Assembly (NCBI RefSeq): GCF_009931435.1
Contig: NZ_CP043414.1
Source of the DNA: Escherichia coli
GTDB lineage: Bacteria; Pseudomonadota; Gammaproteobacteria; Enterobacterales; Enterobacteriaceae
Strand: one strand, 5' to 3'
Length of the DNA: 64,000 bases
The stretch's first letter is position 1. Each line of letters begins with the position of its first letter. The translations under genes were made by a program, and so were the position numbers. This document shows, piece by piece, positions 1 to 62,392 of the stretch. The notes under the pieces were generated by a model that saw only the letters and a program-made list of their open reading frames with translations, was not told the DNA's origin and did not search any database.

Positions 1-492
1 ATAGGAATGGCGGCGCGTTACGCGTGGTTAAATCGCGTGACAATTGCCGAAATGGTGCGCGTATGTCTTGCCAATCTCTTTCATCAGGACAATTCGCATC
101 TGGTGGTGGATGTGCCACATAACATCATCCTTCGCGAGCATGAAATGAATATTCATCGCAAAGGCGCAACACCGGCACGAGTGGGCAATCTGGCGTTAAT
201 CCCCGGTTCAATGGGCGATTATTCGTGGCTTGCGGTTGGTTGCGGCAACCCGGAGTGGCTGTGGTCATGCAGTCACGGAGCAGGACGCAGCCAGCGTCGG
301 CAGGCCATGCGCTCACGCGCGACTGAAGAGTCAACGCTGCCGTGGCAATGCGTCACATTGCGCGAAGAACGACGTCTTGAAGAAGCGCCAGCGGCTTATA
401 AAGATATTGGTCCGGTTATCGAAGCCCAACAAGAAGCCGGATTAATTCAGCCTGTGGTCAGATTTCGACCGTGGTTAACGTTTAAGGCATAA
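1..492 (+). CDS. RtcB-family RNA ligase-like protein, C-terminal 161 codons (5' end lies outside the window)
   Basis: ORF 7..492 in frame from window start; contains IPGSMG and SHGAGR motifs, with the His about 72 residues from the C-terminus as expected for the RtcB GMP-attachment histidine; ends convergent with sucD. Confidence 0.55.
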   Translation: MGMAARYAWLNRVTIAEMVRVCLANLFHQDNSHLVVDVPHNIILREHEMNIHRKGATPARVGNLALIPGSMGDYSWLAVGCGNPEWLWSCSHGAGRSQRRQAMRSRATEESTLPWQCVTLREERRLEEAPAAYKDIGPVIEAQQEAGLIQPVVRFRPWLTFKA

Positions 493-496
493 AAAA

Positions 497-514
497 GGCC
501 ATCATACGATGGCC
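497..514 (-). terminator. intrinsic terminator hairpin (ggccatc-atac-gatggcc) followed on the minus strand by a U-run; ends the sucABCD transcript
   Basis: perfect 7-bp stem with 4-nt loop at 497-514 flanked by aaaaaa at 491-496 on the plus strand. Confidence 0.6.
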
Positions 515-589
515 AACCATGTCGAAACCGACAGCCCTTCGCCATTCCTGTAGAGGGAAGCGGCGAGGGCTATTTCTTATTACAGATAT
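497..589 (-). ncRNA. sdhX: candidate 3'UTR-derived sRNA of sucD (SdhX/RybD position)
   Basis: position between sucD stop codon and the terminator; assignment from established K-12 knowledge, sequence identity not verified. Confidence 0.35.
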
Positions 590-1459
590 TTATTTCAGAA
601 CAGTTTTCAGTGCTTCACCGATATCCGCCAGGCTGCGAACGGTTTTCACGCCTGCGGCTTCCAGAGCAGCGAATTTCTCATCCGCAGTCCCTTTCCCACC
701 GGCAATGATGGCACCCGCGTGGCCCATACGTTTGCCTTTCGGCGCAGTTACACCAGCGATGTAACCTACAACTGGCTTGGTAACGTGCTCTTTGATGTAC
801 GCAGCCGCTTCTTCTTCAGCGCTACCGCCGATCTCACCGATCATCACGATCGCTTCGGTCTGCGGATCTTTTTCGAACATTTCGAGGATGTCGATAAAGT
901 TAGAGCCAGGGATCGGGTCGCCGCCGATACCGACACAGGTCGACTGACCGAAACCGTAATCCGTGGTCTGTTTAACCGCTTCATAGGTGAGTGTACCGGA
1001 ACGGGAAACGATACCCACTTTACCCGGTTTGTGAATGTGACCCGGCTGGATACCGATTTTGCATTCACCCGGAGTGATAACGCCCGGGCAGTTCGGGCCG
1101 ATCATACGAACGCCTGCTTCATCCAGTTTCACTTTCACGGTCAGCATATCCAGCGTCGGGATGCCTTCAGTGATGGTGATAATCAGTTTGATACCTGCGT
1201 CGATGGCTTCCAGAATGGAGTCTTTGCAGAACGGAGCCGGTACGTAGATAACAGAAGCGGTAGCGCCAGTGGCAGCAACGGCTTCACGCACGGTGTTGAA
1301 CACCGGCAGACCGAGGTGGGTAGTACCGCCTTTACCTGGGGTTACGCCGCCAACCATTTTAGTGCCGTATGCAATGGCCTGTTCAGAGTGGAAAGTCCCC
1401 TGGCTACCAGTAAAGCCCTGGCAGATAACCTTGGTGTTTTTATCAATTAAAATGGACAT
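590..1459 (-). CDS. sucD: succinyl-CoA synthetase alpha subunit
   Basis: 289-aa ORF starting [33 protein letters not shown], recognised. Confidence 0.97.
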
Positions 1460-2625
1460 TATTTCCCCTCCACTGCGGCAACAACCTGCTGAGCTGCATC
1501 CGTCAGACCTTTTGCTGCAATAATATTCAGGCCGCTGTCAGCCAGTTTCTTCGCGCCGAGTTCGGCGTTGTTACCTTCCAGACGTACCACGACCGGTACG
1601 TTAACACCCACTTCCGCTACCGCGCCGATGATACCGTCAGCGATCAGGTCGCAACGAACGATACCACCGAAGATGTTAACCAGAACGGCTTTCACTTTGT
1701 CGTCAGAGAGGATGATTTTGAACGCTTCGGTTACACGTTCTTTGGTTGCGCCACCGCCAACGTCCAGGAAGTTAGCTGGTTCGCCACCGTGCAGTTTAAC
1801 GATGTCCATGGTACCCATCGCCAGACCTGCGCCGTTAACCATACAACCGATGTTACCGTCCAGCGCAACGTAGTTCAGTTCCCACTGTGCAGCCTGTGCT
1901 TCACGTGGATCTTCCTGCGACTGGTCGCGCATTTCGCGCAGATCAGGCTGGCGGAACAGTGCGTTGCCATCAGCACCCAGTTTACCGTCGAGGCAGATCA
2001 GATCGCCCTGTTTGGTGATGACCAGCGGGTTGATTTCGATCAACGCCAGGTCGCGCTCCAGGAAAATGGTCGCCAGGCCCATGAAGATTTTGGTGAACTG
2101 CTGAACCAGTTTACCTTCCAGACCCAGTTTGAACGCCAGCTCGCGTCCCTGATACGGCATCGGGCCAGTCAGCGGATCAAGCGCAACTTTGTGGATCAGG
2201 TGCGGAGTTTCTTCCGCCACTTTTTCGATTTCCACGCCGCCTTCGGTGGAGGCCATAAAGACCACGCGACGGGAACTACGGTCTACAACGGCACCAAGAT
2301 ACAGCTCTTTAGCGATATCGGTCGCTGCTTCAACCAGAATCTGGTTAACCGGTTGGCCATTAGCATCTGTTTGATACGTTACCAGACGCTTGCCCAGCCA
2401 GTTTTCTGCAAAAGCACGGATGTCTTCTTTGCTGTTTACAACTTTCACACCGCCCGCTTTACCGCGGCCACCAGCGTGAACCTGACATTTCACTACCCAC
2501 GGACCGGCACCGATTTTTGAAGCGGCTTCTTCTGCTTCGCGCGGAGTAGTACAGGCATAACCCACCGGTGCTGGTAAGCCATAGCGGGCAAACAGTTGTT
2601 TTGCCTGATATTCATGTAAGTTCAT
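1459..2625 (-). CDS. sucC: succinyl-CoA synthetase beta subunit
   Basis: 388-aa ORF starting [20 protein letters not shown]; stop/start overlap with sucD. Confidence 0.97.
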
Positions 2626-2707
2626 GTGTTCTGTCCATCCTTCAGTAATCGTTATCTTTTAAACCGTAGACCGAATATTTCGTATCGCTTCCGGGTATTG
2701 TCGGTCA

Positions 2708-2790
2708 CCCGTAGGCCTGATAAGACGCGTCAGCGTCGCATCAGGCTTCAATTGCCGGAGAAAGCGATAATGCCTCATCCGGTCTACAGT
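2708..2790. repeat. REP (repetitive extragenic palindrome) elements in sucB-sucC spacer
   Basis: gtaggcctgataagacgcgtcagcgtcgcatcaggc palindromic unit. Confidence 0.5.
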
Positions 2791-2809
2791 GCAGGTGAAA
2801 CTTAAACTA

Positions 2810-4027
2810 CTACACGTCCAGCAGCAGACGCGTCGGATCTTCCAGCAACTCTTTGATCGTTACCAGGAAACCCACGGACTCGCGACCATCGATCAGACGG
2901 TGATCGTAGGACAGCGCCAGGTACATCATCGGCAGGATCTCAACCTGACCATTCACTGCCATCGGACGATCTTTGATAGCGTGCATACCCAGAATTGCGC
3001 TCTGCGGCGGGTTGATGATAGGCGTAGACATCAGGGAACCGAACACACCACCGTTGGTGATGGTAAAGTTACCACCGGTCAGATCTTCAACCGTCAGCTT
3101 GCCGTCACGGCCTTTAACTGCCAGCTCTTTAATTTTCTTCTCGATGTCTGCCATGCCGAGGGTATCGACATCACGCAGAACCGGCGTCACCAGGCCACGC
3201 GGCGTAGATACCGCCATGCTGACGTCGAAATAGTTGTGGTAAACCACATCATCGCCGTCGATAGAAGCATTCACTTCCGGGTAACGTTTCAGGGCTTCAA
3301 CCACCGCTTTCACGTAGAAGGACATAAAGCCCAGACGGATGCCGTGACGTTTTTCAAACGCTTCACCATACTGCTTACGCAGATCCATAATCGGCTTCAT
3401 GTTGACTTCATTGAACGTGGTCAGCATGGCGGTGGAGTTTTTCGCTTCCAGCAGACGCTCTGCCACACGCTTACGCAGGCGAGTCATCGGAACACGTTTT
3501 TCGCTACGTGCAGCCAGAGCCGGTTGCGCCGCCGTAGCAGCTGCTGCCGGTGCAGACTCTTTCGCCGGGGCTTTCGCCAGATGTTTTTCCACATCTTCAC
3601 GGGTCAGACGACCACCTACACCGGTGCCTTTAATGGCGCTGGCATCAAGATTGTGTTCAGCCAAAAGGCGACGGATCGCAGGGCTTAACGCATCGTTGTT
3701 TTGCTCTTCCAGAGACGCCTGTTGGCGTTGTGCCGGAGTTGACGCTTTCTCTTCAGATTTGGCGCTGGTTTCTTTACCGGCGCTGTTGCCTTCACGCAGG
3801 CGACCAAGGATCTGACGAGACGTTACGGTTGTACCTTCATCTTCCAGAACCGCATCCAGAATGCCGTCTGCTGATGCCGGTACTTCCAGTACCACTTTGT
3901 CAGTTTCGATTTCTACCAGCACTTCATCACGTACGACTGCGTCGCCGGGTTTTTTATGCCAGGTTGCGACGGTGGCATCGGCTACGGATTCAGGCAGGTC
4001 AGGGACCAGAATATCTACGCTACTCAT
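2810..4027 (-). CDS. sucB: 2-oxoglutarate dehydrogenase E2 (dihydrolipoyl succinyltransferase)
   Basis: 405-aa ORF starting [26 protein letters not shown]. Confidence 0.97.
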
Positions 4028-7002: not shown

Positions 7003-7283
7003 TTCCTGCATTTCTTTTGTAGGCCGGATAACGCATTCACGCTGCATCCGGCGCTGTTTGCCTGATGCGACGCTTGCGCGTCTTATCAGGCCTACGATTC
7101 CTGCATTTCTTTTGTAGGCCGGATAACGCATTCACGCCGCATCCGGCCCTGGTTGCCTGATGCGACGCTTGCGCGTCTTATCAAGCCTACGATTTCTGCA
7201 TTTCTTTTGTAGGCCGGATAAGGCGTTCACGCCGCATCCGGCACTGGTTGCCTGATGCGACGCTTGTGCGTCTTATCAGGCCT
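7003..7283. repeat. tandem BIME/REP array, three copies of a ~95-bp unit each with two inverted REPs
   Basis: unit ttcctgcatttcttttgtaggccggataacgcattcacgc...ctgatgcgacgcttgcgcgtcttatcaggcctacga seen three times in the sdhB-sucA spacer. Confidence 0.75.
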
Positions 7284-26592: not shown

Positions 26593-26676
26593 TACTACTC
26601 CTGGGCGGTTTACAGGAGTAAGTGTAGACGGCGGTACTGAAAAAACGAAACGAATAAATGATAACAGTAAAAAAAT

Positions 26677-27126
26677 TCAATTATTCATAATAAATTTCAT
26701 GGTGGCAAGAAATAGTTTCTTTTCTTCATCACTCATGGCAGCAACGTTTAACATGTTGTCATCAAAATTATTGATGATATTTTTTAATTTCAGTAACTGC
26801 AAAGGAGAAAAATAGTCACTCCCGATGAGATTACTCAATACCAGCAATAGCTCCCCATCATATAAATAGCCCACCATAAGATTAATCTCTATCATCTCAA
26901 TTGCTTTTTGTACAGCAAGCGCCGGTAAGATATTCTGACGAAGCATTTTGGCAATATCATTTTCATCCAGTTCATCGGGTGTTTTATCTAATAAAGAATT
27001 ATACCAGTTTATTAAACCACTTTTGAAAGCGAACGAATCATATTGCAGGTGATAAATCTGTTTTAGGGTTTCTTTATTTTTCAATTTATAGTGCCTTTGT
27101 TTGCTATAATTTTTCTGAAATAACAT
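26677..27126 (-). CDS. hypothetical protein, 149 aa, AT-rich, predicted helical; immunity-protein-like by context
   Basis: ORF with ATG overlapping the stop of the upstream gene (TGATG); strongly AT-rich codon usage unlike flanking core genes. Confidence 0.6.
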   Translation of the reverse strand: MLFQKNYSKQRHYKLKNKETLKQIYHLQYDSFAFKSGLINWYNSLLDKTPDELDENDIAKMLRQNILPALAVQKAIEMIEINLMVGYLYDGELLLVLSNLIGSDYFSPLQLLKLKNIINNFDDNMLNVAAMSDEEKKLFLATMKFIMNN

Positions 27127-27593
27127 CAGCGAGTTTGCTCAGGTGCAGGGATGACCGAAATTGTCATGTATTTTTTCAGTCTGGCTTCTCGTTTCACACC
27201 TTTCGGATCTGAACCAAAAGGAAGCGTCAAGCATGGTGAGTCAACGGTTTGGATTGTCCAGAGAGAATCACCAATGAATCTGAAATTGATGCTATCCGCT
27301 GTAACGGATAATCCCTCAAAACTTCCCGTCGCATACTCATTACCCAAACGTACGGTCTCTTTAACTCCATCATTAACATCGATAAGGACAATTGTCAGTG
27401 ATTCCTCAAAAATAACGTCATCCGTCAGAAAAAGGATATAACGCTGGTCATTAACCTGAATTGCCGCTTCCAGTATTTGCCCTGGTACAATAATACCTGT
27501 GTTATTGCCATTGAGCACAACGTCAGACTGAGCCTGAGATAAATCAGTCGCTTTGTGAACCTTGACCAACGATATCGAATTAACCTGTTGCAT
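27126..27593 (-). CDS. hypothetical protein, 155 aa (start at MQQVNSISLVKVHKATD; the 186-aa track ORF is probably over-extended)
   Basis: ATG at 27593 two nt downstream of the stop of the glycine-zipper ORF; first 31 codons of the track ORF overlap that ORF in another frame. Confidence 0.6.
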   Translation of the reverse strand: MQQVNSISLVKVHKATDLSQAQSDVVLNGNNTGIIVPGQILEAAIQVNDQRYILFLTDDVIFEESLTIVLIDVNDGVKETVRLGNEYATGSFEGLSVTADSINFRFIGDSLWTIQTVDSPCLTLPFGSDPKGVKREARLKKYMTISVIPAPEQTR

Positions 27594-27595
27594 AA

Positions 27596-27736
27596 TCAAT
27601 TCCACAAGCGCCCCATTTCCCATGCGGCAAGTGCACCGCCGACAAAGCCGCCAATAAGTACGCAAACAGGTGCACCTGGACCACACACCAATCCTGCCAT
27701 CGCGCCGCCTGCGACAGCTCCGGCAATAATATTCAT
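27596..27736 (-). CDS. small glycine-zipper membrane peptide, 46 aa (MNIIAGAVAGGAMAGLVCGPGAPVCVLIGGFVGGALAAWEMGRLWN); candidate small toxin or C-terminal remnant of a polymorphic toxin
   Basis: translated by hand from the minus strand; repeated GxxxG/AxxxG motifs, two hydrophobic segments; weak Shine-Dalgarno; open frame continues 35 codons upstream to a TAG at 27842-27844 without a start codon. Confidence 0.4.
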   Translation of the reverse strand: MNIIAGAVAGGAMAGLVCGPGAPVCVLIGGFVGGALAAWEMGRLWN

Positions 27737-27919
27737 CCGGGTACGACTGCCAGTGGTTTTAACAGATTTGCGCTCACCGTTACGTATCCTGCCACCACTC
27801 AGGTTGCAGACGCGGCAGTCACAGCCTTGACGGTGTTGAAACTAAAGTTCAGGTGATAGTCTGATGTTCATAGTTTGAGCATTATCCCCTGACAGAATCA
27901 AATCAAGCAGTGTCAATGA

Positions 27920-28177
27920 TCACGTGTATATATCATTTAAAGCATTATCAAGCCAATCTTCCATGTTTTTAATTTTAGCCCGCGCATATAAATCATTCAT
28001 AACATCCTCATAACTCTGTCCATCATTGACCATACAATTAGCTGTATGAGGCAGAACATGTATAAAATCAGACAATATAAAACAAGCCTTTGAATTTCCA
28101 GAGTTAGCTGCAATTCTGATATCAATCAATCCTCTGGCAATCAATTTAAGAATAACATCTTGCATTTTAATTTCCAT
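27920..28177 (-). CDS. hypothetical protein, 85 aa, AT-rich
   Basis: ORF MEIKMQDVILKLIARGLIDIRIAANSGNSKACFILSDF downstream of the SUKH-like gene on the same strand. Confidence 0.45.
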   Translation of the reverse strand: MEIKMQDVILKLIARGLIDIRIAANSGNSKACFILSDFIHVLPHTANCMVNDGQSYEDVMNDLYARAKIKNMEDWLDNALNDIYT

Positions 28178-28259
28178 ATCATTCAGTTAAATTTCAGTAG
28201 TAAATCGTCTATCAAAAAAAGATGAAATTAACATTCATAAATTTATTACAATATGAAAA

Positions 28260-28613
28260 TCAAAAATATACATCATCAGCTTCTACCGAAAACTCCATGG
28301 CTCCTAAGGCACCTAAATCAATACTAAATATAGTATCACTTTCCTTAGCACTCCCAACATAGATAAAATAGCCTAAATCTCCGTCTTGACCTATCAAAAA
28401 ATAGTCAGGTTCCACTTGTTGAATATCATATGTTTCATTTCTTTCAATAAGATCAGAATAGTTATATAAATATAATGTTTCGTGCTTCTTATTAGTTATT
28501 TCATAGGTCTCACTATCTTTAATTTCTTCTATCAAAAAACGTTTATACACTGGAGGAAACTTGATTGACATGTCAAATTCAATTTTATTTATATATTCTA
28601 TAATTTTATTCAT
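28260..28613 (-). CDS. SMI1/KNR4 (SUKH)-like immunity-type protein, 117 aa
   Basis: motifs FPPVYKRFL and FLIGQDGDLGYFIYVG...IFSIDLG resemble the SUKH superfamily pattern; assignment by eye, not by search. Confidence 0.55.
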   Translation of the reverse strand: MNKIIEYINKIEFDMSIKFPPVYKRFLIEEIKDSETYEITNKKHETLYLYNYSDLIERNETYDIQQVEPDYFLIGQDGDLGYFIYVGSAKESDTIFSIDLGALGAMEFSVEADDVYF

Positions 28614-28848
28614 GTTAAGAATACCTGAAAGATTATTTATTGATTATCTTGATGAATATATCTTCACTTTTTATTTTCATTTACTCATCGCGGAAATACA
28701 CATTGCCTTGTAGACAAGCGCTAATAATACGTTATGAACCTGACTTCCGCCAGACAATCAATCAATGAATTCATTACGCCGTAGTGTTTTAGAAAGACAC
28801 TTTCTGACCAGATGGTGAACCATATACTACATCGCGCATTATAAAAAA

Positions 28849-28872
28849 ACCGCCAGCGTTTCCACTAGCGGT
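28849..28872 (-). terminator. intrinsic terminator downstream of ybfA
   Basis: imperfect hairpin accgccag-cgtttcca-ctagcggt with a U-run on the minus strand (plus-strand aaaaaaa at 28843-28849). Confidence 0.5.
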
Positions 28873-37456: not shown

Positions 37457-37561
37457 ATGGAAAATAATAACCGCTTAATGCCTCATATAAGGCGGACAAC
37501 CCATATCATGAAGTTTGCCCATCGTAATAGTTTTGACTTTCATTTCTTTAATGCCCGTTAG
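37457..37561 (+). CDS. speFL: ornithine-sensing leader peptide of the speF operon (34 aa)
   Basis: hand-translated MENNNRLMPHIRRTTHIMKFAHRNSFDFHFFNAR stop; too short for the ORF track. Confidence 0.8.
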   Translation: MENNNRLMPHIRRTTHIMKFAHRNSFDFHFFNAR

Positions 37562-61688: not shown

Positions 61689-61765
61689 GGCTACGTAGCT
61701 CAGTTGGTTAGAGCACATCACTCATAATGATGGGGTCACAGGTTCGAATCCCGTCGTAGCCACCA
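61689..61765 (+). tRNA. metT: tRNA-Met (elongator, anticodon CAT)
   Basis: 77-nt cloverleaf ggctacgtagctcagttggttagagcac...ccacca, anticodon loop ctcataa. Confidence 0.95.
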
Positions 61766-61773
61766 TCTTTTTT

Positions 61774-61858
61774 GCGGGAGTGGCGAAATTGGTAGACGCA
61801 CCAGATTTAGGTTCTGGCGCCGCAAGGTGTGCGAGTTCAAGTCTCGCCTCCCGCACCA
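61774..61858 (+). tRNA. leuW: tRNA-Leu (anticodon TAG)
   Basis: 85-nt class II tRNA gcgggagtggcgaaattggtagacgc... with long variable arm, anticodon loop tttaggt. Confidence 0.95.
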
Positions 61859-61881
61859 TTCACCAGAAAGCGTTGTACGGA

Positions 61882-61956
61882 TGGGGTATCGCCAAGCGGT
61901 AAGGCACCGGTTTTTGATACCGGCATTCCCTGGTTCGAATCCAGGTACCCCAGCCA
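61882..61956 (+). tRNA. glnU: tRNA-Gln (anticodon TTG)
   Basis: 75-nt tggggtatcgccaagcggtaaggcaccggtttttgataccgg...; symbol assigned by order. Confidence 0.93.
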
Positions 61957-61990
61957 TCTTCTTCGAGTAAGCGGTTCACCGCCCGGTTAT

Positions 61991-62065
61991 TGGGGTATCG
62001 CCAAGCGGTAAGGCACCGGTTTTTGATACCGGCATTCCCTGGTTCGAATCCAGGTACCCCAGCCA
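61991..62065 (+). tRNA. glnW: tRNA-Gln (anticodon TTG), tandem copy
   Basis: identical to the previous tRNA-Gln(TTG); symbol assigned by order. Confidence 0.93.
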
Positions 62066-62080
62066 TCGAAGAAACAATCT

Positions 62081-62157
62081 GGCTACGTAGCTCAGTTGGT
62101 TAGAGCACATCACTCATAATGATGGGGTCACAGGTTCGAATCCCGTCGTAGCCACCA
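62081..62157 (+). tRNA. metU: tRNA-Met (elongator, anticodon CAT), second copy
   Basis: identical to metT sequence. Confidence 0.95.
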
Positions 62158-62205
62158 AATTCTGAATGTGTCGAATGCGTTCGGCAAATTCACAAACCAA
62201 TTTGT

Positions 62206-62280
62206 TGGGGTATCGCCAAGCGGTAAGGCACCGGATTCTGATTCCGGCATTCCGAGGTTCGAATCCTCGTACCCCAGCCA
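62206..62280 (+). tRNA. glnV: tRNA-Gln (anticodon CTG)
   Basis: 75-nt tggggtatcgccaagcggtaaggcaccggattctgattccgg... Confidence 0.93.
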
Positions 62281-62317
62281 ATTTATTCAAGACGCTTACC
62301 TTGTAAGTGCACCCAGT

Positions 62318-62392
62318 TGGGGTATCGCCAAGCGGTAAGGCACCGGATTCTGATTCCGGCATTCCGAGGTTCGAATCCTCGTACCCCAGCCA
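62318..62392 (+). tRNA. glnX: tRNA-Gln (anticodon CTG), tandem copy
   Basis: identical to the previous tRNA-Gln(CTG). Confidence 0.93.

Follow-up and report, generated by a model that had tools for sequence, protein, structure and literature searches.

The window analyzed here is the whole 64,000-nt stretch of Escherichia coli DNA. It opens within a gene of the RtcB RNA ligase family (hereafter rtcB), which converges with sucD. We assigned the following features to this end of the window:

1..492, plus strand: 3′ part of a gene for an RtcB-family RNA ligase paralogue of 465 aa (Pfam; 99.4% match to locus L001; residue alignments; clade alignment)
484..492, plus strand: junction between accessory and core DNA (blastn boundaries 483/487; side-by-side comparison of the window, K-12, O169:H41, O157:H7 and 98203)
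491..514, minus strand: Rho-independent terminator of the sdhCDAB-sucABCD operon and of the SdhX sRNA (terminator scan; fold; PMC6393394)
516..526, minus strand: SdhX seed UUCGACAUGGU, directly 5′ of the terminator stem (read from the sequence; published seed, PMC6393394)
~534..581, plus strand: a second, long G+C-rich hairpin followed by AUUUCUUAUU (fold of window 480-600, z = -5.5)
590..1459, minus strand: sucD, encoding the succinyl-CoA ligase alpha subunit, convergent with rtcB (ORF list; RefSeq annotation of matching loci)

Frame 1 of the plus strand is open from base 1 of the window to the TAA at 490-492, that is for 163 codons, and the fragment measures 161 aa when counted from the first ATG (base 7). 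The first-pass annotation had described an RtcB-like ORF in this position, ending convergently with sucD, carrying the motifs IPGSMG and SHGAGR and placing the GMP-accepting His at the expected distance from the C-terminus; all of these observations were confirmed. The translation holds IPGSMG and SCSHGAGR, and the His of SHGAGR, which aligns with His337 of the E. coli K-12 enzyme (Eco) and His404 of the P. horikoshii enzyme (Pho), lies 71 residues from the C-terminus, and the 408-aa RtcB of K-12 has the same spacing. The Pfam RtcB model (PF01139) matched the fragment with E=1.4e-44, residues 3-162 corresponding to model positions 239-425/426, and the RtcB identity is therefore far above chance. 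The full orthologue from L001 gave E=7e-95 over model positions 7-425/426, and a phmmer search with it against solved RtcB structures gave E-values from 9e-43 to 1e-34. Besides IPGSMG and the SHGAGR His, the part of the gene visible at 1-492 spans the last metal-binding His (VPHNI), the AYK motif and the C-terminal Lys.

The 3′ end of rtcB runs into the terminator of the facing operon. The stem of this terminator occupies 497-514, and its U-tract (491-496) takes in two bases of the rtcB stop codon. Read on the minus strand, the order is UUCGACAUGGU-GGCCAUCGUAUGAUGGCC-UUUUUU, in agreement with the seed published for SdhX and, after it, the terminator of the sdh-suc operon (PMC6393394); spacer 493-589 is therefore the sucD 3′-UTR with the SdhX (RybD) sRNA. 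This identification is based on the published seed and terminator and not on Rfam, which returned no family at the gathering threshold in the rtcB-sucD spacer. It had been proposed that rtcB shares the sucD terminator hairpin, which is correct as a description of the geometry but does not extend to function: hairpin 497-514 follows the intrinsic-terminator rule on the minus strand only (GGCCATCGTATGATGGCC then TTTTTT), and no U-run follows it on the plus strand. A bidirectional terminator was rejected on these grounds, and the hairpin was not taken as a proven terminator of rtcB. The second hairpin, at ~534-581, could be a candidate stop for rtcB transcription within the sucD 3′-UTR; if it acts in this way, rtcB transcripts would be antisense to SdhX, as K-12 mngR transcripts would be. 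Further along the same operon, the sucB-sucC spacer (window 2626-2809) varies in length by strain, ranging between 93 and 274 bp among the loci inspected, and the sucA-sdhB intergenic region carries three tandem matches to Rfam naRNA4 (REP/BIME-type repeats) at window 7022-7282 on the plus strand.

Through the sucD part, the window finds a match in 5,425 of 5,426 complete E. coli genomes, but no more than 289 of them cover the rtcB part. An intact rtcB is found in 289/5,426 genomes and directly adjoins sucD in 156, so that the arrangement, as the first-pass annotation stated, is strain-specific and differs from that of K-12. Only a 44-bp relic of rtcB is left in about 400 of the 5,426 genomes, O157:H7 and 042 among them. 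The first-pass annotation placed K-12 mngR in the same orientation as sucD, which is wrong. In K-12, too, the gene next to sucD (mngR) converges with it and stops at this terminator, and gene orientation is therefore not what distinguishes K-12 from the window. The gene occupies the edge near sucD of the cydA-sucD interval, a region that is already known to vary and is also home to the published mesaconate/FumD cluster. Five arrangements of the cydA-sucD interval were seen in the E. coli loci examined:

Type A: cydA, two hypothetical genes, glmS/L/E, methylaspartate ammonia-lyase, AtuA/DUF4387, a transporter, class I fumarase (FumD), cobO, a LysR gene on the opposite strand, rtcB, sucD
Type B: as type A, with mngB-mngA-mngR between rtcB and sucD
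Type C: hut operon, rtcB, sucD (strain 98203)
Type D (O157:H7): mesaconate cluster and LysR gene kept, rtcB reduced to scraps of 57 bp and 44 bp beside ~450 bp of unrelated AT-rich DNA
Type E (K-12): cydA, mngB, mngA, mngR, sucD, without rtcB

The scraps of type D were seen in O157:H7 MB41-1 (L003 14,495-15,044), and the 57-bp piece is known from that one O157:H7 locus. In strain 98203 (L016 1-5920) the hut operon lies directly upstream of rtcB, replacing the mesaconate cluster, and a metagenomic orthologue of 86% identity (L011) adjoins hut genes too. The best match to window 1-25,000 among complete RefSeq E. coli genomes reaches at most ~98.7% identity, so that the lineage of the window has no very close relative among the complete genomes of that collection; we infer the exact strain background of the window and the upstream neighbours of its rtcB from relatives.

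The junction with sucD bears on how the arrangement arose. Similarity to K-12 begins at 484..492, where the stop codon of mngR lies in K-12. The type-B gene ends in ACG TTT AAG GGG TAA, that of the window in ACG TTT AAG GCA TAA AAAAGGCC, where the final bases are those that follow mngR in K-12 and type B; the last codon of the window's rtcB (Ala, not Gly) and its stop are thus core sequence from downstream of mngR. This rtcB-sucD junction is common to types A and C. The O157:H7 relic has the same junction and is therefore derived from the same rtcB-sucD arrangement. The strain-specific insertion proposed at first did not hold up in its simple form. The simplest reading of these alignments is that the window arrangement would have come from a type-B ancestor (rtcB-mngB-mngA-mngR-sucD) by deletion of mngBAR, an event which would have changed the last rtcB residue from Gly to Ala and would have placed the new stop codon in the U-tract of the sucD terminator.

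Variation between strains was also seen away from this locus. The ybgA-ybfA interval (window 26,600-28,850), which holds rhsC in K-12 and a 7.2-kb vgrG/glycoside-hydrolase segment in RMDEC465, consists here of ~2.2 kb with four small minus-strand ORFs; the RefSeq labels are CDI immunity protein, hypothetical proteins and an IS630 fragment, and at least 80% of the interval is covered in only 13/5,426 complete genomes. It looks like an orphan immunity-gene array left from a decayed Rhs/T6SS locus. The arrest-peptide leader ORF speFL is present at window 37,457-37,561 (plus strand), upstream of speF, and the usual seven tRNA genes (Met, Leu, Gln x2, Met, Gln x2) follow asnB at 61,689-62,392 (plus strand). 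The IS621 copy that precedes asnB in RMDEC465 is absent from the window.

Only the last 163 codons of rtcB lie within the window; the 5′ two thirds are outside and were read from orthologues. The best complete-genome match, strain Z0117EC0005 (locus L001; 99.4% DNA identity over window 1-700), holds a whole and intact 465-aa rtcB. The length of 465 aa is counted from the conserved start, since the upstream ATG used in a 473-aa annotation reads ACG in strain 98203. In this numbering the metal ligands are D104, C107, H224, H255 and H342, which are invariant in the clade and correspond to D95/C98/H203/H234/H329 in the Pho enzyme and D75/C78/H168/H185/H281 in the Eco enzyme; of the five, the window itself covers the last His. 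Four of the six key residues fall in the 5′ part and are predicted from orthologues at 99.4% DNA identity (window 1-700), a disruption in the window genome being possible. When 12 clade members were aligned with K-12 RtcB, the metal-binding Asp, Cys and three His, the Asn-His pair and the nucleophilic His were invariant, together with Arg398/Arg402, Tyr435 and the C-terminal Lys. The orthologue also has equivalents of Arg189, Arg341 and Arg345 of the Eco enzyme, and its alignments to the RtcB of P. horikoshii and of K-12 show that two positions in GMP-binding motifs, the Tyr of AYK and the Lys at the C-terminus, are present as well. The metal-binding Cys and His residues, whose possible loss the first-pass annotation had raised against its own proposal, are all kept in the full-length orthologues. 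Two irregular forms of the protein were noted: an N-terminally shortened RtcB of 398 aa beginning with MRQTCATPDF, annotated in one E. coli lineage and standing for 189 database sequences, and the gene of strain 88-3493, whose annotated first codon translates as Ile and not Met. Either of them may represent a change of start site or early decay.

Taken together, we estimate a probability of about 85% that window 1-492 represents the C-terminal third of a stand-alone RtcB-family gene that looks intact and would be a third E. coli paralogue besides RtcB1 and RtcB2. We consider it improbable that the gene is a decaying pseudogene in the window genome, with an intact-looking tail only. The frequent decay of rtcB within E. 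coli shows that the gene is dispensable and often lost, and the 44-bp 3′ relics of about 400 genomes, the additional 57-bp piece of the O157:H7 locus, the 398-aa form and the position of the 5′ part outside the window would all agree with ongoing decay here. Against this, 163/163 visible codons are open, the 492 bp of rtcB in the window exceed the relics by far, and the full-length copies sampled are all annotated as intact. Selection points in the same direction: pairwise dN/dS among six E. coli copies and one relative of 86% identity was 0.07-0.2 in all comparisons but one, the exception being a value of 0.44 for the near-identical pair L002/L017, which differs at only ~7 sites, and the window fragment compared with its relatives gave 0.07-0.22. 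These low ratios therefore indicate that rtcB is under purifying selection wherever it is retained.

In order to describe the neighbourhood of the gene, 14 loci (six from E. coli and eight from other bacteria) were examined over 4-15 kb around it. Neither prfH, rtcA, rtcR nor archease was found within this distance in any of the 14; a release-factor-like gene was not annotated in the six E. coli loci and gave no Pfam hit in the eight others, and for archease neither the Pfam family nor an annotation was found in the 14. Within E. coli the partners vary, with either the LysR gene and mesaconate cluster or hut upstream and either sucD or mngB downstream, and ~115 bp upstream of the rtcB start are the only sequence common to the differing configurations. 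Outside E. coli, the surroundings of the eight orthologues are unrelated to one another. In P. aeruginosa the gene follows nuo and a gene for a methyltransferase, in Burkholderia it follows an NmrA-like gene and in Pseudogulbenkiania an Rhs toxin gene. The Chitinivorax copy stands between genes of cytochrome c biogenesis and a KptA/Tpt1-like gene, the Ralstonia copy has a gene for a cytochrome c peroxidase as its neighbour and the Variovorax copy one with a FIST domain, and the two remaining orthologues adjoin hut genes in one case and dmsABC in the other. On account of the changing partners, the short shared upstream sequence and the eight unrelated contexts, rtcB looks like a stand-alone gene and not like part of a cassette.

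As for its control, inspection by eye of the conserved 115 bp revealed no TGGCAC-N5-TTGC-like (sigma-54/RtcR) element, and control of the sigma-54/RtcR type was set aside for this reason. A sigma-70 scan of L001 13450-14150 gave no excess of promoter-like sites over shuffled sequences (5 against 3.1 ± 1.6), and none of the sites lies in the conserved 115 bp.

A functional tie of rtcB to the glutamate-fermentation (methylaspartate/mesaconate, FumD) cluster, under the divergent LysR-type regulator, is very unlikely. The gene is indeed divergent from the LysR regulator of the cluster in most of the E. coli carriers examined, and LysR genes are found near the Burkholderia orthologue too, but strain 98203 has hut operon-rtcB-sucD with neither mesaconate cluster nor LysR gene, and O157:H7 has lost rtcB and yet keeps both, so that rtcB and the cluster (glmSLE, mal, fumD) each occur without the other. 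Moreover, the similarity upstream of rtcB extends over just ~115 bp, orthologues elsewhere have unrelated neighbours, and the published description of the cluster by Kronen and Berg names the LysR regulator and is silent on RtcB (PMC4682846). This link was discarded on account of strain 98203 and of the shortness of the shared upstream sequence. Hardly tenable is the suggestion of the first-pass annotation that the gene belongs to an RNA-repair cassette, either as the RtcB2 of a PrfH-type ribosome-rescue/rRNA-repair module or within another multi-gene operon: such RtcB2-PrfH modules do exist in some E. coli strains (PMC9304027, PMC9223846) and the protein does hit the model TIGR03073 ‘release_rtcB’, but with 169.3 bits against a cut-off of 271.8 (and 206.8 against 407 for NF007153), K-12 RtcB1 scores similarly below threshold on both models, so that these hits reflect the common fold only, and the 14 loci contained no cassette partner.

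The family, its chemistry and its motifs are textbook knowledge, and RefSeq names the full gene ‘RtcB family protein’. RtcB enzymes act through Mn2+/GTP-dependent guanylylation of a His, transfer of the GMP to an RNA 3′-phosphate and sealing by the 5′-OH. The product of the stand-alone gene is most likely a GTP/Mn-dependent 3′-phosphate/5′-OH RNA ligase, judging from the residues it shares with these enzymes. In the predicted reaction the His of SHGAGR would be guanylylated with Mn2+ and GTP, the GMP would be moved from the His to the RNA 3′-phosphate, which would be made, if needed, by hydrolysing a 2′,3′-cyclic phosphate, and the 5′-OH end would then attack and seal the break.

What the enzyme might repair can be addressed more tentatively. 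The papers that a literature search for RtcB paralogues and for an RtcB3 in E. coli brought up all dealt with RtcB1, RtcB2-PrfH or the paralogues of Myxococcus; in the literature searched we found no experiment or assay on the 465-aa clade, no functional study of the stand-alone orthologues and no characterisation of the lone third paralogue. RtcB2 shows that paralogues may be substrate-specific (PMC9223846). By analogy, the 465-aa clade might constitute a functionally distinct third bacterial class of RtcB with its own RNA (or DNA-end) substrate, for example a tRNA or rRNA cleaved by a nuclease toxin of the colicin, CDI or Rhs type, and its patchy gain and decay might then reflect fluctuating toxin selection; we regard this as a speculative reading, possible but doubtful. 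Two neighbourhoods, each a single case, give weak hints in its direction, possibly of a role in toxin damage or RNA repair. The Pseudogulbenkiania orthologue (L020 1-5392) lies just downstream of the Rhs toxin gene and a 99-aa ORF, and in Chitinivorax (L008 6001-8049) the KptA/Tpt1-like gene (PTS_2-RNA; RNA 2′-phosphotransferase) starts 73 bp after the orthologue.

E. coli is the main model of bacterial RtcB biology, with RtcB1 assigned to general RNA repair and RtcB2-PrfH to the repair of colicin E3 damage. A lone third paralogue present in ~5% of strains and held under purifying selection would offer an easy target for questions about RtcB substrates. Compared with K-12 RtcB1, the protein belongs to the same Pfam family and has identical equivalents of D75/C78/H168/H185/H281, of His337 within SCSHGAGR and of Arg189/Arg341/Arg345, but the overall identity is 30%. 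With its 465 aa it is longer than the 408-aa RtcB1; an additional segment lies at alignment columns ~205-260, and the longer N-terminus resembles that of archaeal RtcB. The operon of RtcB1 has rtcA and rtcR as neighbours, whereas the gene described here has hutU or the LysR gene before it and mngB or sucD after it, which sets the gene apart from the canonical rtcR-rtcBA locus. RtcB1 is also far more widespread, being found in 4,850/5,426 complete E. coli genomes (89%, absent from ~11%) as opposed to ~5% for the window paralogue. The single carrier checked, Z0117EC0005, possesses a separate rtcR-rtcB-rtcA locus as well; the window-type gene is therefore an additional paralogue in that strain, and this one carrier speaks against a distribution complementary to that of RtcB1.

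The RtcB2 of the RtcB2-PrfH module is likewise an accessory, strain-specific paralogue in E. coli and agrees with the window-type protein in fold and active-site motifs. It reseals 16S rRNA cut by colicin E3, and the module protects against this toxin (PMC9304027, PMC9223846). RtcB2 differs from the window-type protein in the length of its family models (356-379 aa as against ~465 aa), and the window-type gene lacks a prfH partner.

The RtcB enzymes of P. horikoshii and T. thermophilus (1uc2/4dwq and 2epg) are similar in length and in the N-terminal region. PH1602 aligns from end to end (query 48-468 to 30-476) and has the six catalytic residues and the GMP-binding motifs in common with the query, the match being moderate (E ~1e-41); the role of archaeal RtcB in tRNA splicing does not apply here, and no archease partner was seen. 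The true orthologues, 60-67% identical and 462-470 aa long, are found in Pseudomonas, Burkholderia, Ralstonia, Variovorax, Chitinivorax and their relatives. Those of P. aeruginosa, Burkholderia, Ralstonia, Variovorax and Chitinivorax have the signatures WLWSCSHGAGR and RPWxTFKA in common with the window-type gene and are, like it, lone genes, but unlike the E. coli gene they are hosted by beta-proteobacteria and pseudomonads.
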